64,000 nt of DNA from Phototrophicaceae bacterium (lineage in GTDB: Bacteria > Chloroflexota > Anaerolineae > Aggregatilineales > Phototrophicaceae), in NCBI GenBank assembly GCA_965262335.1, contig OZ253528.1:84237-148236 (forward strand), given 5' to 3'. Numbering within the stretch: the first letter of the stretch is position 1; each line of letters starts with the position of its first letter. Made by a program: the position numbers and the translations under genes. The notes under the pieces were generated by a model, which worked only from the letters and a program-made list of their open reading frames with translations, ran no database searches and was not told where the DNA came from. Of the stretch, positions 1,233 through 58,707 are shown in pieces.

Positions 1233-2391
1233 TCTGATCGTGGTCGGATTAGGCGCGATGGGTTCTGCGGCGCTCTATCCGGCGAGCAAACGTGGCGCGA
1301 CCGTCCTGGGCATTGAACGCTTCAATCCGCCGCACAATTTCGGATCCAGCCACGGTGATACCCGAATCACGCGGCAAGCCATCGCCGAGGGCGAAATGTA
1401 CATGCCCTTCATCCGCCGCAGCAACGAAATATGGCGCCAGTTGCAAGCGATCAGCGGGCGCGAACTCTTCCATCAGAGCGGCGGGCTTATCATCTCCCCG
1501 CCACGCGACACAGCAACCTTCCATGCCCAAGGTGATTTCGTCACCGCTTCCGCCCGCGTTGCCGAAAAATTTGGCATCGCGCATGAAATTCTGGACGCGG
1601 ACGAAGTCATGCGGCGCCATCCGCTGCTAACCTTGCGCCCGATCGACCGCGCCTATTACGAAAGCGGCGCCGGAGTCCTGCGGCCGGAACGCTGCATTCA
1701 AACCCAACTCGACCTGGCGCTGGCTGCCGGCGCGACGATAAACATGCGGGAAATGGTGACTGCCTATGAGCCGAGCGCTGATGGCGTCAAAGTGCTCACG
1801 GAAAAGGGCAGTTACCACGCCGACAAAGTGATTCTGTCAGCCGGCGCCTGGATCGGCGATTTGCTGCCGGAGGACTATCGAGCCGGTATCCGCGTTTGCC
1901 GACAGGTGATTTATTGGTTCGAGGCGGAAAATATCAGCGATTTCTATCCGGAAAACTTCCCCTTTGTCATCTGGATCGGCGACAAGTTGGAGGAATTCTG
2001 GTCTGCGTTTCCGGCACCGCGCGATGGCATGCCTGGCGTCAAGATGGTCACCGAGCAATACCATACAGCGACTCATCCCGATCGGGTCAGCCGCGAGGTA
2101 ACAGCGGCTGAAACGGCAGACATGTATCACCGCTTGACCTTGCCGCGCCTCAAAGGTCTGCGCGAAAATCTTGTCCATGCCGATGTCTGCATGTATACCG
2201 TCACGCCAGACGAACACTTTGTCATCGATCAACATCCGCAATCCGAACGGGTGATCATCGCCTCGCCCTGCTCCGGCCACGGCTTCAAACACTCGGCGGC
2301 AGTTGGAGAAGCCCTGGCACAACTGGCATTGGACGGGCAAGCGCAATTTGATATTAGCGACTTTAATCTGGCGCGCTTGCGAATCCCCTAA
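1213..2391 (+). CDS. FAD-dependent oxidoreductase, monomeric sarcosine oxidase / N-methyltryptophan oxidase-like
   Basis: N-terminal dinucleotide fold YDLIVVGLGAMGSAA. C-terminal SPCSGHGFKH (covalent-flavin Cys context of the MSOX/MTOX family). ATG 1213 is preceded by GGAGAAGGA; the longer tracked start 1174 overlaps the previous gene. Confidence 0.75.
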   Translation: MTANHYDLIVVGLGAMGSAALYPASKRGATVLGIERFNPPHNFGSSHGDTRITRQAIAEGEMYMPFIRRSNEIWRQLQAISGRELFHQSGGLIISPPRDTATFHAQGDFVTASARVAEKFGIAHEILDADEVMRRHPLLTLRPIDRAYYESGAGVLRPERCIQTQLDLALAAGATINMREMVTAYEPSADGVKVLTEKGSYHADKVILSAGAWIGDLLPEDYRAGIRVCRQVIYWFEAENISDFYPENFPFVIWIGDKLEEFWSAFPAPRDGMPGVKMVTEQYHTATHPDRVSREVTAAETADMYHRLTLPRLKGLRENLVHADVCMYTVTPDEHFVIDQHPQSERVIIASPCSGHGFKHSAAVGEALAQLALDGQAQFDISDFNLARLRIP

Positions 2392-2451
2392 ACTAGCGAC
2401 AAACGAGGCGCTGGATCGCCTGCGAGTGTTGACAACTATCGGTCTGAATCT

Positions 2452-2477
2452 CCCCTCCCTAATGCTTTGGGGAGGGG
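2452..2477. repeat. REP-like hairpin: C-rich arm CCCCTCCC, loop TAATGCTTTG, G-rich arm GGGAGGGG
   Basis: Read directly. 8-bp stem in the intergenic gap between 2391 and 2500. The same loop sequence recurs at 49711..49731, and related hairpins flank the MITE copies. Confidence 0.6.
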
Positions 2478-2499
2478 TTGGCGGAGAGGAAGAAAAACC

Positions 2500-3303
2500 A
2501 TGCGACTTCAAGGAAAAACAGCCATTATAACCGGTGGCGCCAACGGCATCGGCGCGGGCTGCGTACGCCGGCTTGCCAGTGAAGCATCCAATGTTGTCAT
2601 CGCCGATATCGATGATAATAGCGGGCAGGCATTGGCTGCTGATCTGGCAGCTGCGCCCGCCGGTGTCATTTATCATCGCACCGATATCACGGAGCGCGCT
2701 GCGGTGGAAGCACTATTTGCTGCAGCTATCGACGCGTTTGGCAGCATCAATATTCTGGTGAACAACGCCGCCTTCGTGCATAAATCCGGTGTGATCGCCA
2801 ACTTCCTCGATTATAGCGATGAATCTTGGCAACTGACGCTGGCGGTGAATCTCACCGGCATGTTCTATTGCTCGCAGACGGCCGCGCGCCTCATGGCGAA
2901 GCGCGGTCAAGGTGGCGTGATCATCAATATGAGCAGCGGTGGCGCCTCACGCGCGCATCGGCATATGTTCGGCTACGACACCAGCAAAGGTGGCATCGAG
3001 GCAGCCACGCGGGTGATGGCGCTTGATTTGGCGCCGCTCAATATCCGCGTCAACACCGTCGTGCCAGGCAGCACCCGCGTCGATCATGGTACTTTCGTCG
3101 GCGATAATCCCATCCCGCCCTCGGACGTCATCCCGCTGGAGCGTCAAGGTAGGCCGGCCGATATCGCCGCTGCCGTGGCTTTCCTGGCATCAGATGACGC
3201 TGCCTACATCACTGGCACGCGCCTCATCGTCGATGGCGGTATGGACGCGCAATTGCGTACACCCTCGGTCGACTTTCGCTATGATTTCAGTGAGTATCGT
3301 TAG
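2500..3303 (+). CDS. Short-chain dehydrogenase/reductase (SDR)
   Basis: TGGANGIG cofactor motif, NNAA, catalytic YDTSK. ATG 2500 is preceded by GGAGAGGA. Confidence 0.85.
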   Translation: MRLQGKTAIITGGANGIGAGCVRRLASEASNVVIADIDDNSGQALAADLAAAPAGVIYHRTDITERAAVEALFAAAIDAFGSINILVNNAAFVHKSGVIANFLDYSDESWQLTLAVNLTGMFYCSQTAARLMAKRGQGGVIINMSSGGASRAHRHMFGYDTSKGGIEAATRVMALDLAPLNIRVNTVVPGSTRVDHGTFVGDNPIPPSDVIPLERQGRPADIAAAVAFLASDDAAYITGTRLIVDGGMDAQLRTPSVDFRYDFSEYR

Positions 3304-3357: not shown

Positions 3358-3450
3358 CTCTTTTCTTAACAATCCGCTATGCTCGAACGAGCAGTCGGTT
3401 TGATATTTTGCGCGAGCACGGCAGACCTTATCGCTGCCGCCGAGCGGCTG
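3358..3450 (+). repeat. ~92-nt intergenic repeat family, copy 1
   Basis: CTCTTTTCTTAACAATCCGCTATGCTCGAACGAGCAGTCGGTTTGATATTTTGCGCGAGCACGGCAGACCTTATCGCTGCCGCCGAGCGGCTG is near-identical to 49612..49703. It contains hairpins TGCTCGAACGAGCA and GCCGCCGAGCGGC. Its 3' part overlaps the last codons of the minus-strand gene ending at 3428. Confidence 0.7.
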
Positions 3451-5399: not shown

Positions 5400-5495
5400 A
5401 CTGCTTTTTTGATAAACTTCTATGCTGGCAAAAGCGGAAGCTTGATAATTTTGTATGAGCGCACTTGCCCTTAGCGCTGCCGCCTTGAGGCTAGT
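5400..5495 (+). repeat. ~92-nt intergenic repeat family, diverged copy
   Basis: ..CTATGCTGGCAAAAGCGGAAGCTTGATAATTTTGTATGAGCGCACTTGCCCTTAGCGCTGCCGCCTTGAGGCTAG aligns by eye with the 49612 and 3358 copies. Similarity is clearly weaker. Confidence 0.35.
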
Positions 5496-19433: not shown

Positions 19434-19754
19434 ATGACCTACCAAGCCAATGAGCCCCTGCCCAAGAGCATGTCCGCTATCGTCTGCCACGGACCCGAAG
19501 ACTACCGAATTGGAGAATGGCAAGTGCCGGAACCCGGCGCCGGCGAAGTCGTCATCCGCGTGCAATCGGTGGGCATCTGCGCCAGCGACCTCAAGTGCTA
19601 TCAAGGCGCGCCGCTCTTTTGGGGTGATGATACGCGCCAGGGTTACTGCCAGCCGCCGGTCATACCGGGCAGCAAGTTTGTCCACACGGGTTTGAAGCCC
19701 CTCCCTCTTAAAGGAACCGAGGCGCGGATCCGTAGTTTTTGCCACTTACAATAG
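19434..19754 (+). pseudogene. Truncated 5' copy of the Zn-ADH gene at 20565
   Basis: 19434..19669 equals 20565..20800 apart from 3 synonymous substitutions. After the repeat the frame reads GSKFV.. instead of GHEFV.. and stops at 19754. Confidence 0.85.
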
Positions 19755-20564: not shown

Positions 20565-21665
20565 ATGACCTACCAAGCCAATGAGCCCCTGCCCAAGAGC
20601 ATGTCCGCTATCGTCTGCCACGGACCCGAAGACTACCGAATTGGAGAATGGCAAGTGCCGGAACCCGGCGCCGGCGAAGTCGTCATCCGCGTGCAATCGG
20701 TGGGCATCTGCGCCAGCGATTTGAAGTGCTATCAAGGCGCGCCGCTCTTTTGGGGTGATGATACGCGCCAGGGTTACTGCCAGCCGCCGGTCATACCGGG
20801 ACACGAATTTGTCGGCGAAGTGGTGGCATTAGGCGAAGGCGCGGGCGAAAAGTACGGCTTGGCATTGGGCGATAACGCCGTCTCCGAACAGATCGTGCCT
20901 TGCTGGAATTGCCGCTTCTGCAAGCGCGGTCAATATTGGATGTGCCAGGACAAGCACGATGTCTACGGCTTCCGTCAAGCCACCGTTGGCGCCATGGCGG
21001 AATATATGCTTTTCCCGGTCGGCGCCCTGAATTACAAAGTCCCCGATACCCTGCCGGCCCATCATGCCGCTTTCATCGAGCCGCTCGGCTGCTCCATCCA
21101 TGCCGTGCAACGTGGCGAAATCGAACTTGATGATGTGGTGGTGATCGCCGGTTGCGGACCGCTCGGTTTGGGTATGGTGGCTGCCGCAAGGCTAAAGAAT
21201 CCGGGCCTGTTGATCGCCATCGACTTGAACGACGACCGCTTGGAAATCGCCGAACTCTGCGGCGCTGATATGCGCATGAATCCGCGTAAAATCGATGTCA
21301 TCGACGAAGTGCTAAAACTGACCGAGGGCTACGGCTGCGATGTCTATATCGAAGCCACCGGTTACCCCGCCGCCGTGCTGCAAGGCTTGCAGATGATCCG
21401 CAAGCTCGGCACCTTTGTCGAATTCAGCGTCATGCGCGAGCCGGTCACCGCCGATTGGACCATCATCGGCGATACCAAAGAACTCAATATCCACGGCTCC
21501 CACCTTAGCCCCTATACCTATCCCATCGCTATCGATATGCTGAGCAAAGGATTGCTGCCCATGGACCGCATCATGACGCATCAGCTGCCCCTGAGCAGTT
21601 TCCACGCTGGTATGGATATGGTCGCTGCTGGCACGGAATCGGTAAAAGTCACCTTAACGCCTTAG
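20565..21665 (+). CDS. Zn-dependent medium-chain alcohol/polyol dehydrogenase (sorbitol/threonine dehydrogenase-like)
   Basis: GICASDLK, GHEFVGEV catalytic-Zn motif, structural-Zn Cys cluster C..C..C.......C (CWNCRFCKRGQYWMC), GCGPLGL Rossmann motif. Confidence 0.85.
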   Translation: MTYQANEPLPKSMSAIVCHGPEDYRIGEWQVPEPGAGEVVIRVQSVGICASDLKCYQGAPLFWGDDTRQGYCQPPVIPGHEFVGEVVALGEGAGEKYGLALGDNAVSEQIVPCWNCRFCKRGQYWMCQDKHDVYGFRQATVGAMAEYMLFPVGALNYKVPDTLPAHHAAFIEPLGCSIHAVQRGEIELDDVVVIAGCGPLGLGMVAAARLKNPGLLIAIDLNDDRLEIAELCGADMRMNPRKIDVIDEVLKLTEGYGCDVYIEATGYPAAVLQGLQMIRKLGTFVEFSVMREPVTADWTIIGDTKELNIHGSHLSPYTYPIAIDMLSKGLLPMDRIMTHQLPLSSFHAGMDMVAAGTESVKVTLTP

Positions 21666-21694: not shown

Positions 21695-22426
21695 TTGACC
21701 AACCAACTTGCCGATAAAGTCGTCATCATCACCGGCGCTAGTTCCGGCATCGGCGAAGCCTGTGCCCGCCTACTCGCCCAACAGGGCTGCAAACTCACGC
21801 TGGCCGCCCGTTCCGTCGACAAGATGGAAGCGCTCGCTGCCGAGTTATCGACGGAAAGTTTAGTCGTACCTGCCGACATGACCCAGCCCGCTGACATATC
21901 CAACATGGTGCAACGCACCCTTGATCACTTCGGGCGTATTGATGTGATGTTGGCGAATGCCGGCATTTATATCAAAGGGCAGTTTGCCGACGGCGACATC
22001 AATGACTTATGCACTTTGCTCAAGATCAATGTCGATGCCGTTTTGCGCTGTGCCCACGCCGTCATCCCGCAGATGAAAGCGCAAGGCAGCGGAGATATCA
22101 TCGTCAGCAGTTCTGTCTCCGGACATCACGATATTCACGGTGAACCGATCTATAGCGCCAGCAAAAACGCCGTGCAGACCTTCGTGCATACCGTTCGACG
22201 TCAATTGGCGGGTGATGGCATTCGCGTCATGTCCCTGGCGCCGGGCCCGATTGCCAATCCTCTATTGGGTTTCCATGATGCTGAGGATATCCGGCGCGTA
22301 TCGGAGGATGACCGCGCCTATTTGACCTCCGTCGATTGCGCGGAGGTGATTCTCTTCATGCTTTCCCGTCCGCCCCATGTGACCATCCGCGATTTGGTCA
22401 TGCTGCCACAAATCGACCGAGTCTGA
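21695..22426 (+). CDS. SDR oxidoreductase, tandem paralog 1
   Basis: KVVIITGASSGIGEA, NAG, YSASK catalytic motif. 243 aa. Confidence 0.85.
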   Translation: MTNQLADKVVIITGASSGIGEACARLLAQQGCKLTLAARSVDKMEALAAELSTESLVVPADMTQPADISNMVQRTLDHFGRIDVMLANAGIYIKGQFADGDINDLCTLLKINVDAVLRCAHAVIPQMKAQGSGDIIVSSSVSGHHDIHGEPIYSASKNAVQTFVHTVRRQLAGDGIRVMSLAPGPIANPLLGFHDAEDIRRVSEDDRAYLTSVDCAEVILFMLSRPPHVTIRDLVMLPQIDRV

Positions 22427-22473
22427 CCAAAGGCTGTTCCATTCTCTTGTCGTATTGAATTCGAGGAACTTCA

Positions 22474-23208
22474 ATGAGCAATTCACTGGAAGGTAAAGTC
22501 GTCATCATCACAGGAGCCAGCTCTGGCATCGGCGAAGCCTGTGCCCGCCTGCTCGCTGAGTACGGCTGCAAACTCACGCTGGCCGCCCGCTCTGTCGACA
22601 AGATGGAAGCGCTCGCTGCCGAGTTGTCCGCGGAATGTTTGGTCGTCCGCGCCGATATGACCGTGCCACAGGATATTGCGGCCATGATCGACCGCACTCA
22701 AGATCATTTCGGACGGATTGATGTCATGTTTGCCAATGCCGGCGTCTATATCGACGGCGAATTTGCCGATGGTGACCCCGATGCCTTTTCGGACTTGCTC
22801 ACGATCAATATCGACGCGGTCCTGCGCTGTGCCCATGGCGTCATCCCGGCGATGAAAGAACAGGGCGGTGGCGATATCGTCGTCACCAGCTCGATTTCCG
22901 GTTTCGGGGATATACATTGGGAACCGATCTATAGCATGAGCAAGCACGCCGTGCAGACCTTTGTGCATACAGTGCGTCGACAATTGGCTGGTGATGGCAT
23001 TCGCGTGATGTCGCTAGCGCCGGGCGCCGTCGCCAATCCACTATGGGGATTTCACGATGCCGCGGAAATCGAGCGCGTCTCGGCCGGCGAGCGCAGTTAT
23101 CTGGCATCCGAAGATTGTGCCGAAGCGCTGGTCTTTATGCTGACTCGGCCGAAACATGTCACCATCCGCGACCTGGTGATCTTGCCGCAAAATCAGGTAA
23201 ACGTCTGA
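22474..23208 (+). CDS. SDR oxidoreductase, tandem paralog 2
   Basis: KVVIITGASSGIGEA, YSMSK. Collinear with paralogs 1 and 3 along its whole length. Confidence 0.85.
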   Translation: MSNSLEGKVVIITGASSGIGEACARLLAEYGCKLTLAARSVDKMEALAAELSAECLVVRADMTVPQDIAAMIDRTQDHFGRIDVMFANAGVYIDGEFADGDPDAFSDLLTINIDAVLRCAHGVIPAMKEQGGGDIVVTSSISGFGDIHWEPIYSMSKHAVQTFVHTVRRQLAGDGIRVMSLAPGAVANPLWGFHDAAEIERVSAGERSYLASEDCAEALVFMLTRPKHVTIRDLVILPQNQVNV

Positions 23209-23222
23209 TGGTGCCGGGGAAT

Positions 23223-23954
23223 ATGCGCAACCCGCTGGCGGGCAAAGTCGTCATCATCACCGGTGCCAGTTCCGGCATTGGTGCTGCTGCGGCTCGTCTG
23301 CTCGCCCAATACGGCTGCCAACTCACGCTGGCCGCCCGCTCTGTGGACAAGATGACAGCTCTCGCCGCGCAATTGGCCACCGAGTCCCTCGTCTTCCGCG
23401 CTGATATGAGCGTTCCGGCTGATATTATCGCCATGGTGGAGCGGACTCTGGAGCGCTTCGGCCGGATTGATGTGATGTTCGCCAATGCCGGCGTTTTTAT
23501 TATGGGTGATTACGCATCCGGCGACCCCGACGCATATTCCAACTTGCTCAAGGTAAACGTGGACGCCGTTTTGCGCTGTGCTCATGCTGTCATTCCTATC
23601 ATGAAAGCACAAGGCTCTGGCGATATTCTGGTCACCAGCTCAATCGCCGGTCATGCCGAACTGCACCTGGGACCGGTCTACGGCGCCTCGAAACACGCGA
23701 TCCAGACCATGGTGCATACCCTGCGGCGACAATTGGCTCAAGACGGCATTCGCGTGATGTCGCTGGCGCCCGGCCGGGTTGCAAACGAATTATGGGGTTT
23801 GACTGATCCGCAGGAAATCGAGCGCTTGACCGTAGCCGAACACGCTTACCTGAAGGTCGAAGATGTCGCCGAAGCCGCTGTCTTTATGTTAAGCCGACCA
23901 AGTCACGTGACTATCCGCGATATCCTGATGTTGCCGCAGAAACAGGATGTGTAG
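23223..23954 (+). CDS. SDR oxidoreductase, tandem paralog 3
   Basis: MRNPLAGKVVIITGASSGIG parallels MTNQLADK.. and MSNSLEGK.. of the other two, so ATG 23223 is preferred over 23208 or 23043. YGASK motif. Confidence 0.8.
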   Translation: MRNPLAGKVVIITGASSGIGAAAARLLAQYGCQLTLAARSVDKMTALAAQLATESLVFRADMSVPADIIAMVERTLERFGRIDVMFANAGVFIMGDYASGDPDAYSNLLKVNVDAVLRCAHAVIPIMKAQGSGDILVTSSIAGHAELHLGPVYGASKHAIQTMVHTLRRQLAQDGIRVMSLAPGRVANELWGLTDPQEIERLTVAEHAYLKVEDVAEAAVFMLSRPSHVTIRDILMLPQKQDV

Positions 23955-30676: not shown

Positions 30677-30921
30677 GCCGCAGCAAGTTGCACTAGCTTT
30701 GATTCGCTACAGGCTCATAGTGCCGACAAAGACCAATGAAGTCTCATTGCTCGGCACATGAGCCGCCCTTCCGCATCAATATGGGGAGGATCAGACGTTG
30801 AATTTGCCGCACTGGCTGAACTGCGTTCGTCAAAACCAGCGTTGAAGTTGCGTTGCTCCGTGAATAATTTTATCGCGCCACAAGACTCCACCATGATATC
30901 AACCCTCCCCAACACGTTATT

Positions 30922-31004
30922 GATAAATCACCATGCTCGTGAGAGCAGAAGCTTCGATGTTTTTAGGGTGGGCGACGAACCTTATCGCCGCCGCCGAGCG
31001 GCTG
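30922..31004 (+). repeat. ~92-nt intergenic repeat family, diverged copy
   Basis: ..CCATGCTCGTGAGAGCAGAAGCTTCGATGTTTTTAGGGTGGGCGACGAACCTTATCGCCGCCGCCGAGCGGCTG aligns with 49612..49703. The first hairpin keeps the TGCTC/GAGCA stem with a different loop. Confidence 0.55.
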
Positions 31005-35760: not shown

Positions 35761-36068
35761 TGTTCCGCCCCGCTATATGGCAGTATTCTGGCAGACTTAT
35801 GCCTGTACCTTCCGACTAGACTGCAATTGGGCAGAACCAAAATATATCAGACGACGGCGCTGCATTTCAACAGGGTGCTTATTTGAGAATCCAAAACACG
35901 ACCCTTTCCTGGCCCTTTGCGTAGTCGTTCGAACGATCGTCCCGTCACGCCAGTCTTTGTGTTTTCCAGCTAACCTGCCCTATAGTATACGTATTCCGGA
36001 ATGGAGGCGCTGATAAGCAATCGATGTATCACTCGTCCGCAAGTCTATTGATTGATGCGAGGTGCGAA

Positions 36069-37358
36069 ATGTTACGTTCATTCAAATTCTTCACATTCCT
36101 TTCCGTCTGCATCCTGATATTCGCCGGCACGGCGCTGGCGCAGGATGATGGCCTTAAACTCACCGGCTGGCCCTATCAAGTGGATGTCGTCACCGAGAAC
36201 CTGGGACGCTTTACCGAGCAATCAGGTAATGACGCCGTCTTCTTACCCTTCCCCAGCAATGAATACCACGACAAGATGGTCGCCAGCTTCGTTGCCGGCA
36301 CCGAATTCGATGTTGCCTACGTCCGCGACAGCTACCTGGCGGAATGGGCTTCGGCCGGCTGGATCGTGCCCATAACCGGCTTGCCCAACTCCGAAGAATT
36401 GCTGGCTGATCTCCCGGCCGGTATCATCGAGCAGATGTCTTACGCTGGCGAAGTCTATGGCTTGCCCTACTATTCGGGCTTGGAGACTCTCGCCTACAAC
36501 GCAGCGCATCTGGAAGCCGCGGGTCTCGACGCTCCGCCCGCAACCTGGGACGAAATGCTGGAACAAGCCCAGGCTATCAAAGACGCTGGCGTGGTCGATT
36601 ATCCCATCTTGATGCAGTTGCGTAGTGGCGAGAACTACCTGCTGCGCCAGTGGGAGACGCTGACAGCCTCTCGTGGCGGCCGACTATTCGATGACGACCT
36701 CAACCCGCTTTTCCATCTTGAAGACAGCCCGGCGAGCCAGGCATTGCAATGGCTGGTACAGGGACTCGACGCCGGTTTGATCGATCCGGCTTCGATCACC
36801 GACGATGACGGTACTTTGCTGATGATGGCTGGAACCACCAGCTTCATGACCACCACTGACTACACGCTCAAGGCAATAAACGATCCGGAACAATCCAATG
36901 TCGCCGGCGACGTCAAGAACGCCCTCGTGCCAGGAGCGAATGGCGTGATAAGCGGCACCTGGGGTTATGTCCGCTTGTATTCCATCACTGCCAATGCCGA
37001 AGACCAGGACGCCGCCTGGCAGTTGGTCCAATTCCTCGGCGGCCGGGACGCCACCGGTGTCTACTACGTGCCCAAGCGCTGGGCGCTGGAATTTGGCTTG
37101 GGCTTCTCTCAGGCACCGCTTTACGAAGATGAAGAAGTTCGCAATTCCATCTCCGGCTGGATAGATCCCGATCTGCTCAGCGAGCAAGCCGAATACGCCA
37201 TCTCACGTCCCTATCGCTTCGTGCCCTTCTTCTCCGATTGGGAGATCGACAGTTGGGGTCCGCTGCAATCCGTTATCCTCGGCGATTCCGATGTCGGCGA
37301 GGTGCTCAACGACCTGGCTGAAGAATGGAACGACCTGAAAGAAGAATGGGACTACTAG
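36069..37358 (+). CDS. Sugar ABC transporter substrate-binding protein
   Basis: MLRSFKFFTFLSVCILIFAGTALAQDD signal peptide, GAGGTG RBS, solute-binding family-1 size. Confidence 0.8.
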   Translation: MLRSFKFFTFLSVCILIFAGTALAQDDGLKLTGWPYQVDVVTENLGRFTEQSGNDAVFLPFPSNEYHDKMVASFVAGTEFDVAYVRDSYLAEWASAGWIVPITGLPNSEELLADLPAGIIEQMSYAGEVYGLPYYSGLETLAYNAAHLEAAGLDAPPATWDEMLEQAQAIKDAGVVDYPILMQLRSGENYLLRQWETLTASRGGRLFDDDLNPLFHLEDSPASQALQWLVQGLDAGLIDPASITDDDGTLLMMAGTTSFMTTTDYTLKAINDPEQSNVAGDVKNALVPGANGVISGTWGYVRLYSITANAEDQDAAWQLVQFLGGRDATGVYYVPKRWALEFGLGFSQAPLYEDEEVRNSISGWIDPDLLSEQAEYAISRPYRFVPFFSDWEIDSWGPLQSVILGDSDVGEVLNDLAEEWNDLKEEWDY

Positions 37359-37380
37359 GCCATATTGATCCCACCCCAAG

Positions 37381-37429
37381 GTCCTTCTAAGAAAGTCTGT
37401 GTCTGCGCGAAACAGACTGAGGGAAGGAC
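37381..37429 (+). other. Nested intercistronic stem-loop downstream of the binding-protein gene
   Basis: GTCCTTC..AGTCTGT-GTCTGCGCGAA-ACAGACT..GAAGGAC. Two stacked perfect 7-bp stems. No adjacent T-run. Confidence 0.4.
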
Positions 37430-37455
37430 ATCCGCAGTTTTGAACGAACTCCCCT

Positions 37456-38280
37456 TCCCTCCTTGTGGGGGACGGGGCCGGGGGATGGGGGGCTAAGGAA
37501 ACCGCAGTGCGATCACAAATCACCGCCACGCGCAAGGAAATGTCACAAGGCATGATGGCGCTGCTCTTCAGCGCGCCCGCCGTACTCATTATCTCCGCCA
37601 CCATCCTCTTGCCCTTCGGCTTGGCTGTTTTCCTCAGTTTGCATAGTTGGAACTTGAAGCGGCCCGGACGCGAACGCTTTATCGGCTTGGAGAATTACGC
37701 CGACTGGCTCACCGATAGCGACTTCTGGGATGTATCCCCCCACAGAGGTGGGGGGAGCGTGGAAGGGGGGCATTCGAATTGATGACGCAGAATTCCACCG
37801 CCACACGCAAGGAAATGTCACAAGGCATGATGGCGCTGCTCTTCAGCGCGCCCGCCGTACTCATCATCGCCGCCACCATCCTGGTGCCCTTCGGCTTGGC
37901 TGTTTTCCTCAGTTTGCATAGTTGGAACTTAAAGCGGCCCGGACGCGAACGCTTTATCGGCTTGGAGAATTACGCCGACTGGCTCACCGATAGCGACTTC
38001 TGGGATGTATTCCCCCACAAAGGTGGGGGGAGCGTGGAAGGGGGGCATTCGAATTGATGACACAGAATTCCACCGCCACACGCAAGGAAATGTCACAAGG
38101 CATGATGGCGCTGCTCTTCAGCGCGCCCGCCGTACTCATCATCGCCGCCACCATCCTGGTGCCCTTCGGCTTGGCTGTTTTCCTCAGCTTGCATAGTTGG
38201 AACTTGAAGCGGCCCGGACGCGAACGCTTTATCGGCTTGGAGAATTACGCCGACTGGCTCACCGATAGCGACTTCTGGGA
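37456..38280 (+). repeat. Tandem array, 3 x 275 bp: G/C hairpin + first ~200 bp of the permease gene
   Basis: CACCGCCAC(G/A)CGCAAGGAAATGTCACAAGG recurs at 37521, 37796 and 38071 (period 275). All units end at GACTTCTGGGA (37730, 38005, 38280). Units 2 and 3 are near-identical, unit 1 is slightly diverged. Confidence 0.9.
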
Positions 38281-38962
38281 ACCCTTGCGCACCACCTTCA
38301 CCTTCGCCATCATGGCCGTCGTGCTCATTGTCATTATCTCTCTGCTGATCGCCCTTCTGCTCAATGAAAAGTTTCCCGGACGCGGCATGCTTCGGGCGCT
38401 GCTGCTGGTCCCGTGGGCGATTCCCTCGGTCGTCAACGCCTTACTCTGGAAATGGCTGCTTGATCCCACCTACGGCTTGATCAACGCCCTCTTACTCGAA
38501 ACCGGCTTGATCTCGACCTACCAAGCCTGGCTGGGGCAAATGCCCAGCGTCATGATCTGGACCGTCATCGCCTATTCCTGGATTCATATCCCCCTGGCCA
38601 CCCTGCTGCTGCTATCCGGCTTGCAGACCATCCCGGGCGATATCTACGAATCCGCCATCGTCGACGGCGCCAGTATCTGGCAGCGCTTCCTCTTCATCAC
38701 CCTGCCCATGCTGCGTCCCATGCTCTCCATCGTCATCATATTCGAGATGATTTTCGCCCTGAAAGTCTTCGATATCATCTTCGTACTCACCGCCGGTGGA
38801 CCCGCCAACGCCACCAATGTGCTCGGCTGGCAAATCTATACCGAGACCTTCCGCAAGCTCGATTTCGGCGCAGGTAGTTCTATTGCGATGCTGCTCGGTG
38901 CCATCACCCTCGCCCTCGCCATCTTGTTCTACGCCTTCCTGGACAAAGGAGTAGAACAATAA
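38057..38962 (+). CDS. Carbohydrate ABC transporter permease (MalF type), full-length copy
   Basis: TM-rich, EAA loop ..YESAIVDGASIWQRFLFITLPMLRP... Start ambiguous (ATG 38057, 38090 or 38102) because the 5' end lies in the tandem array. Confidence 0.8.
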   Translation: MTQNSTATRKEMSQGMMALLFSAPAVLIIAATILVPFGLAVFLSLHSWNLKRPGRERFIGLENYADWLTDSDFWEPLRTTFTFAIMAVVLIVIISLLIALLLNEKFPGRGMLRALLLVPWAIPSVVNALLWKWLLDPTYGLINALLLETGLISTYQAWLGQMPSVMIWTVIAYSWIHIPLATLLLLSGLQTIPGDIYESAIVDGASIWQRFLFITLPMLRPMLSIVIIFEMIFALKVFDIIFVLTAGGPANATNVLGWQIYTETFRKLDFGAGSSIAMLLGAITLALAILFYAFLDKGVEQ

Positions 38963-39834
38963 TGAAACAGCGCGCGCGCATCCGCATGGCCATCATTTAC
39001 ATCGCCGCCACACTCTTGTTGTTAGGCACAGTTGGCCCCTTCCTTTGGCTGGTCAGCTCCAGCTTCCAATATGAACGGCAACTGCTCAATATCCCGCCGC
39101 AATGGCTGCCCAATCCGGTCGTGATTGACAGCTACCGCGAGATCTTCGAAGGCGCAGTCCTGGGCGAGGCATCCGGCGTGCCCTATCAATCGCGTATTTT
39201 CTTGCGTTCCTTCGCCAACAGTTTCTTCGTGGCCGGCAGTGTCGCGGTCATCGCCGTTCTTGTCGGTGCCTACGCCGCCTATCCGCTGGCGCGCCTGCGA
39301 TTTCGCGGTCGACGCATCTTGCTTTTTGGCATCCTTGCCAGCCGGCTAATCCCGGCACTATCATTGGCCATCCCCATCGTGCTTGTCGCCAAGAAAATCG
39401 GCATGAGTGACAAGATCGTCTCGCTAGTCTTCATCAACCTGTCTTTCATCCTGCCCTATGTCATCTGGCTGCTGCAATCCTACTTCAAATCCATTCCCGT
39501 GGAATTGGAAGACGCCGGCCGCATTGATGGCTGCAGCCGCCTGCAAGTGGTGCACAAGATCATCCTGCCTCTGTCGCTCCCCGGCTTAACATCGGCGGGC
39601 ATCCTGGCTTTCTTGCTGACCTGGGGCGAGTTCCTCTTTGCCTTGCTCTTGTCAGAGACGCCCAGTTCCTATACCAGCACGGTCGTTGTCTCGCTCTTCG
39701 CCACCGATGTCGATGTCAATTTCGTCAGTATTATCACCGCTGGCGTGATCTCGGTCATTCCACCTATCAGTTTCGCATTGATCTTTCAACGTTTCATCAT
39801 CAGCGGCTTGCTCTCCGGCTCGCTCAAGGGCTGA
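38962..39834 (+). CDS. Carbohydrate ABC transporter permease (MalG type)
   Basis: TAATG overlap with the upstream permease. ..ELEDAGRIDGCSRLQVVHKIILPLSLP.. EAA motif. Confidence 0.85.
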   Translation: MKQRARIRMAIIYIAATLLLLGTVGPFLWLVSSSFQYERQLLNIPPQWLPNPVVIDSYREIFEGAVLGEASGVPYQSRIFLRSFANSFFVAGSVAVIAVLVGAYAAYPLARLRFRGRRILLFGILASRLIPALSLAIPIVLVAKKIGMSDKIVSLVFINLSFILPYVIWLLQSYFKSIPVELEDAGRIDGCSRLQVVHKIILPLSLPGLTSAGILAFLLTWGEFLFALLLSETPSSYTSTVVVSLFATDVDVNFVSIITAGVISVIPPISFALIFQRFIISGLLSGSLKG

Positions 39835-39989
39835 GCAAAAATCTGGCAGCAGAGCACAAAGATCAAGACGAACCGAAACTTTCAATTCTTAGTAGTTCCC
39901 ATAAAATAATGCGAAAAAACTTCATTTGTATCGAGAGTTCTGGATGTAATCCCAATCCCGCGAATAGCGCTCCCCTTCCCTCATTTTGG

Positions 39990-40305
39990 CTGAGGACAGG
40001 ACAGGTTTTGAGGTGGAACGTGATGTGGAAAAGGACGGGAAAAGGATAAGAAAAGGAGCAAATATAGCGATTACATATCGATACAGTATCGATATTGAGC
40101 ATGATTTCGCCAAATTGGATAGTGATCCGGCGAGAACGCGCCAGTTGCAAGAAAGACATGAAGGAAAGCGATAAGATTCCCATATAGCCGAGCGTATCAT
40201 CATTTGCCGGGGACGCGGCGACTATATGGTCGCGGTTTCATGCAGGAATTGCTGATGGTCGCTAGCTGATGCGCGAGGCGGGAGCGAAACCTGTCCTGTC
40301 CTCAG
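39990..40305 (+). mobile_element. MITE-like non-autonomous element, copy 1 (316 bp)
   Basis: Perfect 19-bp terminal inverted repeats CTGAGGACAGGACAGGTTT. 10-bp direct duplication CTCATTTTGG at 39980..39989 and 40306..40315. ~93% identical to the reverse complement of 58335..58681. Confidence 0.8.
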
Positions 40306-40430
40306 CTCATTTTGGGGGATGGGGGCTGATCGCAAATCACTTTTCTTGCACGGCAAACTTGGTACTGCTTTTGTCTTTTAGTGATTAAAATAAATCGTTA
40401 ACTTCAGCGTCCGCATAACGAGGCGCAACC

Positions 40431-49611: not shown

Positions 49612-49703
49612 CTCTTTTCTAACAAACCGCTATGCTCGAACGAGCAGTAGGTTTGATATTTTGTGTGAGCGCGACAGACCTTATCGCTGCCGCCGAGCGG
49701 CTG
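49612..49703 (+). repeat. ~92-nt intergenic repeat family, copy 2
   Basis: Near-identical to 3358..3450 (about 8 differences). Immediately followed by a REP-like hairpin. Confidence 0.7.
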
Positions 49704-55926: not shown

Positions 55927-57231
55927 ATGAATATGCGATTGTTTGCCGCAATGATATCAGTGTTTTTTCTATGTGTTGTGGCAACGGCGCAGGATTATAC
56001 CATTCGCGTAACGTTCAACACCAATTTGCGGGATACCTATAGTCTCGAGGGCAATGTCGTTGAATCTGTGCCAGCAGGCGCAACCCTGCATGTCGTCGGC
56101 CAGTTTGGCCGATGGCTAACTATCAACAGAAACGGAAACGAAGTCTGGATGGCGAGCTGGGTAAGTCACACCCGCGTTGAAAGCGCTACTCAGACGCAGA
56201 CCACAACGCAAGTTGCGAGCAACATAGACAACTGCTGTTTCGTAGATCGGCAATGCAATAACGATCAAGAATGGATGGACGGGTATTGGGCCTTTCAAAA
56301 TGGTCAATGCACGGCGCCTTCAACATCTCAGGAGCAGACGCCATCGCAGCCCGCGGGTAATGAGACGGGTCCAATTGATAATTGCTGTTACGTTGATCGG
56401 CAATGCAATAACGATCAGGAGTGGATAGACGGGTATTATGCCTATCTGAATAATCAATGTGCTGCGCCTTCAACATCTCAGGAGCAGACATCATCGCAGC
56501 CCGCGGGTAATCAGACGGGTTCAACTGATAATTGCTGTTTCGCTGGCTGGTACTGCAATAGTGACCTGGAATGGGTAAACGGGTATCATGCCTATCAGGA
56601 CAATCAATGCGGGGCGGCGACCCCGGTGAGCTATGTGGATAGTTGCTGTCAGCTGGGCTGGAATTGTACGCTTTATGAAGACCGGCTCGTAGGGCAGTGG
56701 ACCATCGGAGAAGGCTTGGAATGTGGCGCGCCCATACAGGTTCCTTACGATGGAACGATAATAGAGGGCACAGAAACTTTTATCGCCCAGGTTAAAGCAG
56801 CGCTTGATTTGCTCAAGAGCGCCGCGCCGCCGTGGTATGCCTACGTGGTCAAGGGGCCAATTAAGATTCGCGGGGTTCCTCCCGGAAGCGGCACCTACGC
56901 ACTGGAAAGGACGATTAATTTAGCGCCTTCCCATGCTGCTCAAGCCACAATCGTGTTTGCCGGTACCATTTTGCATGAGACTTGTCACTCACACAGATGG
57001 CGTGCCGGGTTGTTACGTTATGACACTGAAGAACATATATTTATCGAAGAGAACATCTGTGAAACAGTAAGGACAGAGGTGCTGGAAGGGATCGACCCTC
57101 AAAGACCACCCAATGTCATTCTCCAACAGGTAATCGCTGAATTCTTTAGTCGGGGAAACCAATTTGATTTTGATGCCGGCGCGCGTCGAGAACGGGATCT
57201 TGCAGCCCATCTCCTTTCGACGATGAACTGA
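55927..57231 (+). CDS. Secreted protein: SH3b-like domain + 4 Cys-rich repeats + C-terminal HExxH domain
   Basis: Signal peptide. YTIRVTFNTNLRDTYSLEGNVV..GRWLTI (SH3b-like). Four CC-x5-C-x17-C modules, two of them a ~150-bp near-identical tandem repeat. ..GTILHETCHSH.. metalloprotease-like motif. Confidence 0.7.
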   Translation: MNMRLFAAMISVFFLCVVATAQDYTIRVTFNTNLRDTYSLEGNVVESVPAGATLHVVGQFGRWLTINRNGNEVWMASWVSHTRVESATQTQTTTQVASNIDNCCFVDRQCNNDQEWMDGYWAFQNGQCTAPSTSQEQTPSQPAGNETGPIDNCCYVDRQCNNDQEWIDGYYAYLNNQCAAPSTSQEQTSSQPAGNQTGSTDNCCFAGWYCNSDLEWVNGYHAYQDNQCGAATPVSYVDSCCQLGWNCTLYEDRLVGQWTIGEGLECGAPIQVPYDGTIIEGTETFIAQVKAALDLLKSAAPPWYAYVVKGPIKIRGVPPGSGTYALERTINLAPSHAAQATIVFAGTILHETCHSHRWRAGLLRYDTEEHIFIEENICETVRTEVLEGIDPQRPPNVILQQVIAEFFSRGNQFDFDAGARRERDLAAHLLSTMN

Positions 57232-58194: not shown

Positions 58195-58334
58195 GCTCAG
58201 TTGACAAGTGCATCCCCGGTAAAGACTTTGCGCAGGGACAACCCGCGCCAACTAAGCTATGAATGCGCGTCGTTCTGAGTTTGATCGGGTTGACTAGAGA
58301 CTATAGCCTTTGCGTCACCCTTCCCTGATGCTTC

Positions 58335-58681
58335 CTAAGGACAGGACAGGTTTCGCTCCCGCCCCGCGCATCAGCTAGCGACCATCAGCAATTCCTGCAT
58401 AAAACCGCGTCCATATAGTCGCCGCGTCCCTTGCAAATGATGATACGCTCGGCTCTATGGGAATATTATCGCTTTCCTCCATGTCTTTCTTGCAACTGGC
58501 GCGTTCTCGCCGGATCGCCATCCAATTTGGCGAAATCCTGCTCTATATCAATACTGTATCGATAGATAATCGCTATATTTGCCCCTTTTCCCGTCCTTAT
58601 TCATCCTTTTCCCATCCTTTTCCCGTCTTTTCCCGTCCTTTTCCACATCACGTTCCACCTCAAAACCTGTCCTGTCCTCAG
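58335..58681 (-). mobile_element. MITE-like non-autonomous element, copy 2 (347 bp), inverted relative to copy 1
   Basis: Same termini (one mismatch: CTAAGG vs CTGAGG). 9-bp duplication TGATGCTTC at 58326..58334 and 58683..58691. Carries extra GGGAAAAGGA-type short repeats relative to copy 1. Confidence 0.8.
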
Positions 58682-58707
58682 ATGATGCTTCGGGGAGGGG
58701 TTGAAAA

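Follow-up and report, generated by a model that had tools for sequence, protein, structure and literature searches.

Bacterial tandem duplications of the type described by Roth and Andersson begin with an illegitimate join and then expand and contract in a RecA-dependent manner. The interspersed repetitive units of mycobacteria (MIRUs), roughly 50-100 bp long, are dispersed at many loci, and their copy number differs between strains. In work attributed to Newbury (1987) and Shyamala (1990), stem-loops of the repetitive extragenic palindromic (REP) and bacterial interspersed mosaic element (BIME) type, as at malE-malF and hisJ-hisQ, are said to stabilise upstream mRNA, and to supply the join points of REP-mediated duplications. 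MIRUs are short and apparently mobile, and they carry a short open reading frame (ORF) whose stop codon overlaps the next start (-4 nt) with little effect on the downstream gene; it is owing to this overlap that they are thought to be tolerated within operons, and spacings of -1 and -4 nt are classic termination-reinitiation architectures that are enriched for coupling (PMC12548453). Here we describe an array of 275-bp units lying between the solute-binding protein (SBP) gene and the first permease gene of an ATP-binding cassette (ABC) importer operon. The array is in a 64,000-nt stretch (the window) of contig OZ253528.1, positions 84,237 to 148,236, from a Phototrophicaceae bacterium, a family placed in the Chloroflexota by the NCBI taxonomy. 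It is a real, heritable tandem duplication of variable copy number.

In kind the array is a tandem duplication, or variable-number tandem repeat (VNTR), that is MIRU-like in its position and its coupled short ORFs, but is derived from a gene and found at a single locus. As in duplications of the Roth/Andersson type, there is one novel join, the units are head to tail, their number varies and can collapse, and they are homogenised; unlike those duplications, the 275-bp unit contains no complete gene, is no short-lived laboratory variant but common to strains and to two clades, and lies inside an operon in a frame arrangement that preserves downstream translation. With the MIRU-type VNTRs of mycobacteria the array shares intercistronic tandem units, each having a short ORF and a stop/start overlap; it differs in the length of the unit, in being taken from the downstream gene's own 5' end, and in occurring at this locus only, as judged from the window and 78 fetched loci. 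The likeness to REP/BIME elements is that a G/C-rich stem-loop sits between the SBP and first permease genes at every orthologous locus, one family of these having a GTAG head, but the spacer hairpin of the array is not dispersed in the sampled DNA, and the join lies beside one hairpin rather than between two. Like leader ORFs that deliver ribosomes by termination-reinitiation, the array ORFs overlap the downstream gene, through TGATG or ATGA (PMC12548453); unlike those, the 'leader' here is a repeated truncated paralogue of the gene that follows, and the coupling is putative.

As read from the sequence and the unit alignment, the repeat unit is a 210-bp core (CACCGCCAC…GACTTCTGGGA), which is the 5' coding sequence of the permease, plus a 65-bp spacer (TGTATCCCCCCACAGAGGTGGGGGGAGCGTGGAAGGGGGGCATTCGAATTGATGACGCAGAATTC). 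With Tandem Repeats Finder (TRF) a single strong array is seen, spanning 37521-38280, with a period of 275, 2.8 copies, 97% matches and a score of 1450, and a second repeat search of the window returned the same three-copy family. The units run head to tail at a constant period, with the core end GACTTCTGGGA at 37730, 38005 and 38280, and the same junction, GGGA joined to TGTWT, is present in all units of all arrays. An initial annotation, made from the sequence alone, proposed three tandem 275-bp units beginning at 37456. The period, the cores and the boundaries stand, and the substitutions it quoted for unit 1 are present in the unit alignment. The segment 37456-37520, however, is a different C-run/G-run hairpin region that aligns weakly with the spacer and is no copy of it, so that the array comprises 2.8 units and the spacer hairpin occurs twice rather than three times. 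The features are as follows.

36024..37358, forward strand: SBP gene of an ABC (CUT1-type sugar) operon, directly 5' of the array (Pfam SBP_bac_1, E=5.7e-27; SBP_bac_8, E=3.6e-23).
37359..37506, forward strand: native intergenic region 5' of unit 1, with stem-loops and an AAGGA, from sequence and fold.
37507..37782, forward strand: truncated ORF 1, 91 aa, GTG start, tail DVSPHRGGGSVEGGHSN, with a TGA stop (37780-37782) that shares a base with the ATG of the following ORF (TGATG).
37521..37730, forward strand: core copy 1, 210 bp of permease 5' coding sequence; its 195-nt core is 97.5% identical to copy 3.
37731..37795, forward strand: spacer 1, beginning at the join of GGGA to TGTAT; hairpin 37736-37755, Shine-Dalgarno (SD)-like GGAAGGGGGG 37761-37770, ATG 37782-37784, and first codons.
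37782..38057, forward strand: truncated ORF 2, 91 aa, opening with ATG and closing with the tail DVFPHKGGGSVEGGHSN and a stop (38055-38057) that shares a base with the permease ATG.
37796..38005, forward strand: core copy 2; its 195-nt core is 99% identical to copy 3.
38006..38070, forward strand: spacer 2; hairpin TCCCCCACAAAGGTGGGGGG 38011-38030, SD-like run 38036-38045, ATG 38057-38059.
38057..38962, forward strand: full-length permease, 301 aa (Pfam BPD_transp_1, E=4.4e-13).
38962..39834, forward strand: second permease, 290 aa, its start overlapping the stop of the first.

Core copy 3 (38071-38280) lies inside the full-length permease, with unique sequence from 38281 onward, and spacer 2 appears to be the working translation-initiation region of that gene. 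The gene set is that of a binding-protein-dependent ABC importer: the permease scores 49.8 bits with BPD_transp_1 (PF00528; gathering cut-off 26.4), PF01547 and PF13416 are both found in the SBP, and a second permease follows on the 3' side. Truncated ORF 1 consists of the N-terminal tail, the first transmembrane helix (TM1) and the start of loop 1, and then DVSPHRGGGSVEGGHSN. The 91-aa fragments have no Pfam domain match. In both of them the final A of the TGA stop also opens the ATG that follows, giving TGATG at 37780-37784 and 38055-38059. The chain of ORFs overlapping at TGATG in the initial annotation is therefore present as proposed: two 91-aa ORFs, and then the intact permease.

To what extent is the array shared among close relatives? 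Contigs of the window clade were retrieved by exact protein look-ups with the second permease and with the 301-aa permease, both of which are blind to the array. The identical second-permease protein is found on three other contigs, two of which (L001 and L002) have two units and one (L003) three. The look-up with the 301-aa permease gave three contigs, namely L077, which is the same as L003, L078, with three units, and L076, with three junctions and about 3.5 units; in L076 the first unit is 5'-deleted, with core positions 107-195 left, and the second has a +1 frameshift. The six contigs of the clade (the window and five others from four ENA assemblies) thus have 2, 2, 3, 3, 3 and about 3.5 units, all six having at least two, while the unique parts of their genes are 97.5-98% identical, and copy number varies among strains within one sample. 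The unit copies carry single-nucleotide polymorphisms (SNPs) of their own, and some of these are common to orthologous units across strains, which is incompatible with an assembler having looped through one copy. Unit 1 carries A30S in the window and in L003, and V35L in the window, in L001 and in L002.

More distant orthologues of the permease, 79-92% identical, are found in metagenome-assembled genomes (MAGs) of Phototrophicaceae, Aggregatilineales, Anaerolineae and other Chloroflexota, and the bin names of several of these relatives, taken as names alone, suggest marine-sponge metagenomes. A tblastn search with the N-terminal 74 residues against 63 species-level loci found a single copy in about 45 close species, four copies at 275-bp spacing in L006 (OZ220735.1), and three copies in L012, at spacings of 275 and 236, unit 2 there having a 39-bp deletion that keeps the frame offset. 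A search with the 91-aa fragment found 92-aa fragments on more contigs, with four units in L072 and L075 and two in L071; a protein search with a 41-aa tail query gave no candidates. L033 is single-copy, though 97.3% identical to L006 in the unique part. Copy number in this second clade is therefore 1 (L033), 2 (L071), 3 (L012) or 4 (L006, L072 and L075), L006 being a contig of 4.34 Mb that we read as circular from the 'c' at the end of its name. The two comparisons that the initial annotation had recommended, of copy number and of orthologous loci, thus bear on the array directly: units number from 1 to 4 across strains and species, with polymorphism among relatives in both clades, and the junction recurs in a second clade while about 45 species have one copy.

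Some lesions at these loci may be recorded here. In L063 (OZ243937.1), at 1750-3000, an IS3-family insertion (HTH_Tnp_1 and rve) splits the permease at about codon 117, and in L071, at 1813-2984, an IS3-family insertion sequence (HTH_Tnp_1 and rve) lies between the SBP gene and the array. L074 (the same as OZ220735.1) is 99.7% identical to L075 but lacks one nucleotide of it at about position 1376; the resulting frameshift in the SBP signal-peptide region could be a real lesion or a homopolymer error.

The junction common to both clades reads GA(C/T)TT(C/T)TGGGA, followed directly by TGT(A/T)TCCCCCCACA(G/C)AGG(T/C)GGGGGGAGC(G/T)TGGAAGGGGGG. The join itself, of TTCTGGGA to TGTWTCCCCCCACA (as a pattern, TTCTGGGA to TGTWTCCCCCC), is identical between the clades, with microhomology of at most 1 nt. 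The two clades are not sisters in a neighbour-joining (NJ) tree of the non-repeated permease sequence and the second permease gene, where they are about 82% identical, and about 62% identical at third codon positions. Since identical breakpoints with so little microhomology make two independent events very unlikely, we infer that the arrays of both clades descend from one ancestral join. A scan of JGI metagenomes with the junction pattern TGGGATGTWTYCCCCCACA gave four matches, all due to chance and none with permease homology. A core profile run with nhmmer found no decayed relics of an array 5' of the single-copy orthologues, L011 included, and the loose junction likeness of the L011 upstream sequence ACTTCGAGCATGT is treated as coincidence. 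Nor is there support for the array having passed recently from one clade to the other by horizontal transfer, as the core units follow the gene tree and similarity is not raised in the core beside the spacer. Older transfer or mosaic recombination may have played a part, as N-terminal tails and hairpins have clearly been swapped among lineages (L033 and L071 versus L006).

What is the source of the spacer? The single-copy L011, sister to the L006 clade, has as its ordinary upstream and start ATGTCCTCTCCACAGCACACAGGTGGGGGGAGCTTGGAAGGGGGG…CATGACC, which is homologous to the spacer from ATGT onward. The presence of a homologous hairpin, SD and ATGAC as a normal gene start means that the spacer is duplicated native 5' sequence, and spacer 1 is homologous both to the second-clade spacers and to this native upstream. 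The initial annotation had held that the duplication itself created a new start codon. This we can set aside: the join is between 37730 and 37731, and the ATG lies 51 nt downstream of it, inside the duplicated native upstream region. It is true that unit 1 lacks the ATG, as was noted, but it has a GTG at the homologous codon (37507-37509), with AAGGA at 37495-37499, 7 nt to the 5' side. This AAGGA-N7-GTG layout is that of many single-copy species (AAGGAAGACCGCCGTG), and single-copy orthologues also have the hairpin family of the unit 1 upstream region, whose stem-loops include CCCCTTCCCTCC-TTGT-GGGGGACGGGG at about 37449-37477, and which is not a spacer copy. A 'ratchet', in which the unit 1 start has been lost and collapse to one copy would be lethal, is accordingly unsupported for the window.

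A G/C-rich stem-loop lies about 130 bp 5' of the permease start, between the SBP and permease genes, in every species (L004-L064). These stem-loops belong to at least four unrelated families, TGTAGGGGTCAGCCAGTGGCTGACCC (with the REP-like GTAG head), TCCCTCCCTCTTTATGGGGGAGGGA, CCCCTTCCCTCCTTGTGGGGGAAGGGG and TCTCCCCCCATTGCAATGGGGGGAGA, and the distribution of the families, which is discordant with the gene tree, suggests mobile or recombining hairpin modules. The first nine codons have also been swapped between lineages, unit 1 of L033 and L071 encoding MQSRIATS, as in the L025/L035 group, and L006 encoding MTLKPVSS.

The hairpin within spacer 1, CCCCCCACAGAGGTGGGGGG at 37736-37755, has a copy with two mismatches at 38011-38030, where none is expected by chance (100 shuffles), so that the hairpin and the 5' end of the gene are indeed duplicated together, as first annotated. 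Its stem arms, CCCCCCAC and GTGGGGGG, fold in RNA as a 9-bp G:C stem (86 nt, -32.5 kcal/mol, z -1.96). No further copies of it were found in the 64-kb window or in the 78 fetched loci. A search of the whole window against Rfam at gathering thresholds gave no match, and so no known leader or riboswitch; consensus scans for sigma-70 promoters and intrinsic terminators found nothing in the units, the terminator scan covering 37359-38070. Several known kinds of element can be passed over on these grounds. An intrinsic terminator or attenuator with a leader peptide would call for a T-run after the stem, which is absent, as are a terminator and an Rfam match. As for a REP/BIME element, the palindrome is present here, yet there are no further copies in the sampled DNA. 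A dispersed mobile family of the MIRU kind does not fit a gene-derived unit of 275 bp whose hairpin occupies one locus. A diversity-generating retroelement is not indicated by unit differences that are G/A, T/C, T/G and CT/GG, with adenine bias absent.

The frame relationships of the units follow from their length. Because 275 is 2 mod 3, a fragment that reads on into the spacer is in the +1 frame with respect to the ATG that follows, and any start of the form ATGA then gives a stop; in the window an additional TGA 3 nt earlier produces TGATG. The array, lying between SBP and permease genes, thus has the intercistronic layout of MIRUs, with an overlap of -1 nt (TGATG) in the window clade and of -4 nt (ATGA) in the other. 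With the join fixed, this frame would arise about one time in three, so the overlap need not have been selected. The same arithmetic disposes of a longer repeat-containing protein, the finding that the initial annotation had named as fatal to its proposal: 275 cannot be divided by 3, and a stop closes each of the units.

The units of one genome have evolved together. In an NJ tree of all 72 core units, grouping is by clade, not by position in the array. Core identity is 97-99% within arrays and about 85% between clades, and identity at third codon positions is about 95% within an array and 62-65% between clades. All four combinations of codon 30 (A or S) with codon 35 (V or L) are present among the unit 1 alleles of the window, L003 and L002 and other units, which points to conversion or recombination between units or between strains. 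Against this homogeneous background the upstream units look relaxed or decaying. Truncated and terminal units differ by eight distinct non-synonymous events, five or six of which are at invariant or nearly invariant sites in 57 functional copies (A30S, K51E, E62V, W67L, K10M and V35L), the V35L residue never being seen in those copies, and all of the listed replacements are confined to truncated units. Truncated ORF 1 of the window has both A30S and V35L, residues absent at those sites from the 57 functional copies. The 5'-deleted and frameshifted units of L076 and the 39-bp deletion in unit 2 of L012 fit the same picture. Unit 1 of L001 is frameshifted, on a contig that also has indel errors in neighbouring genes.

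The explanation that we consider probable, with a good deal of room for doubt, is that the array is a dynamic tandem duplication, a gene-derived minisatellite at the boundary of the SBP and first permease genes, whose fragments are likely by-products. A single illegitimate join would have connected permease codon 75 (…TTCTGGGA) to a point 5 nt 5' of the stem-loop (TGTWTCCCCCC…) that precedes the gene's own ribosome-binding site, producing a 275-bp unit made up of hairpin, SD, start codon and 75 codons. With 210-bp cores so nearly alike, whole units could then be gained or lost through replication slippage or unequal homologous recombination, giving the 1-4 copies seen, and gene conversion would hold the units of one genome 97-99% alike while the clades drifted about 15-18% apart. 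Since the last unit is continuous with the remainder of the gene, the permease stays intact and would be translated from the last spacer. The upstream 91/92-aa one-helix fragments are most likely by-products without a function of their own. Ribosomes would be passed on by termination-reinitiation at TGATG or ATGA, so that polarity is probably avoided, and we propose that it is for this reason that the duplication is tolerated.

Several observations sit poorly with a neutral array. Collapse to one copy between 210-bp repeats should be easy, frequent and irreversible, and at the deletion rates known for direct repeats, a neutral array should be lost to mutation pressure long before the window clade reached its synonymous divergence of 6-7%; nevertheless, none of the six contigs found by array-blind look-ups has fallen below two units. 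This persistence within the clade hints at low deletion rates in these organisms or at a degree of selection for the array. Over its first 40 nt, comprising join, hairpin and SD, the spacer is identical between clades at 36-37 of 40 positions (90-92%), as against about 62% at synonymous sites, which would imply constraint on the segment or later transfer. This conservation is explicable, because the last spacer is the working initiation region of the permease and conversion would spread its sequence to the others. The fragments themselves are mostly intact: in 19 of 22 truncated units an unbroken ORF runs from the unit's own start codon to a stop that overlaps the start of the following one, and truncated and terminal units show about 25 synonymous differences beside the eight replacements. 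The synonymous excess is expected from conversion by functional copies, and we regard the peptides as probable by-products for that reason. On balance we think it most likely that the array is tolerated as a by-product rather than serving as a dedicated device, and its persistence in both clades leaves room for selection.

Might the array nevertheless be a selected device? It would then act as a rheostat, a ladder of hairpin-SD-coupled ORFs adjustable by recombination in the manner of a contingency locus, each unit altering the ribosomes, or the stable mRNA, that reach the permease genes relative to the SBP gene. It would set either the permease-to-SBP ratio or how efficiently the permease is translated. 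The retention of at least two units in every window-clade contig retrieved by the array-blind look-ups speaks for this, as does the presence of the array in two of three species representatives of the second clade, and the difference in copy number among strains of one sample is what an adjustable device would show. The four differences in the conserved spacer segment spare the C6/G6 stem and the SD, and the stop/start overlap is maintained in both clades despite differing start regions, the 39-bp deletion in L012 preserving the offset. However, the roughly 45 related species manage with a single copy and assorted other hairpins, the single-copy L033 is 97% identical to the four-copy L006, the chain in L076 is broken by a deletion and a frameshift while its operon is intact, and the spacer conservation is expected anyway. 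We therefore think a selected device rather unlikely, while granting it more weight than any other alternative. If it were true, sponge-associated Chloroflexota would tune transporter stoichiometry by gain and loss of 275-bp units, and the device would have persisted, evolving in concert, since before the clades split to their present synonymous-site difference of about 38%.

The fragments, each made up of a cytoplasmic tail, TM1, about 45 periplasmic residues and a Gly-rich tail, could instead be functional small membrane proteins, for example modulators of permease dimer assembly. Their mostly intact ORFs, each with its own SD and start, the mainly synonymous nature of their differences, the unchanged frame offset in L012 and the likeness of the tail DVSPH.GGGS.EGG in both clades would all fit. 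But replacements at permease-invariant residues occur only in the fragments, frameshifted and 5'-deleted units exist, there is no Pfam domain, and most species lack the peptide altogether. The tail, moreover, is kept through its overlap with the hairpin and SD, and has undergone two synonymous and two non-synonymous changes between clades. A function of this sort strikes us as quite improbable.

Slightly less credible still is a recurrent or site-specific process triggered by the hairpin, such as fork stalling with template switching or a mechanism like that of REP and its associated tyrosine transposases (REP/RAYT), which would also account for a duplicated gene 5' end elsewhere in the window, in an alcohol dehydrogenase (ADH) gene. 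The left breakpoint does lie 5 nt away from the stem, several hairpin families, including one with a GTAG head, have been exchanged among species in the intergenic region, which makes it a hot spot, and the array is present in two non-sister clades. On the other side, an identical junction with about 1 nt of microhomology argues for a single event, the spacer hairpin is found nowhere else in the window or the fetched loci, and TRF shows no other such array in 64 kb.

The ADH case, which the initial annotation had linked to the array through a common hairpin mechanism, has a different character. Its repeats, of 249 bp (19434-19682 and 20565-20813, 97% identical), are the first 83 codons of a zinc-ADH gene, and they flank an 882-bp segment with a GC content of 0.42-0.52 against about 0.6, the downstream ADH copy being full length. 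The insert encodes a membrane-like N-terminal part followed by a MUG113/T5orf172 (GIY-YIG-related) domain (PF13455, E=4e-14; PF10544, E=7e-11), has no stem comparable to that of the spacer at its ends, and is found in the same arrangement on contig L079. It looks like a mobile gene that inserted in the ADH gene and supplied a replacement 5' end, and the proposed link does not hold.

Finally, an assembly artefact, in which a repeat was collapsed or expanded or strain variants were concatenated, might be suspected from the metagenomic origin of the sequences, the low coverage of some contigs (2x-13x in their names) and the indel errors beside the array in L001, but is largely refuted, and very improbable. 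At least 10 contigs have the array, among them the 4.34-Mb contig flagged 'c', and they come from at least 6 assemblies and 2 GenBank MAGs; its SNPs are particular to each unit and partly common to orthologous units; and its length is at most 1.1 kb, which single long reads would span if the contig names rightly suggest long-read assemblies.

With the tolerated, dynamic duplication as the preferred reading, the locus offers a clean natural case of the way in which a tandem duplication of part of a gene can last in the genomes of uncultured symbionts: the frame keeps downstream translation, recombination shifts copy number, and conversion homogenises the units across speciation. Were the array under selection, it would amount to a simple dial, at the level of DNA, for the ratio of ABC transporter subunits. 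There is also a caution for annotation, in that 91/92-aa 'hypothetical proteins' 5' of these permeases are gene fragments, and short-read MAGs may misreport the array locus.

Other repeats are present in the window. At 21695-23940 three paralogous units, each about 750-780 bp long and 66-78% identical, stand in tandem; since the equivalent position in L079, next to the ADH gene, is taken by adh_short/KR genes, they probably encode short-chain dehydrogenases. A 150-bp tandem repeat is reported by TRF at 56233-56610 (2.5 copies, 82% matches). Four repeats of about 89 nt (3362-3450, 5405-5493, 30916-31004 and 49615-49703), 64-91% identical and ending in CCTTATCGCTGCCGCCGAGCGGCTG, lie at or near gene ends in differing contexts. 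Two elements of about 350-380 bp, at 39973-40324 and 58318-58700, resemble miniature inverted-repeat transposable elements, having terminal inverted repeats of about 36 nt (CCCTTCCCT…GGACAGGACAGGTTT and AAACCTGTCCTGTCCTCAG…GGGG) and interiors that are apparently in opposite orientation, and the second of them contains an 11/21-nt CCTTTTCCCGT repeat at 58584-58649.

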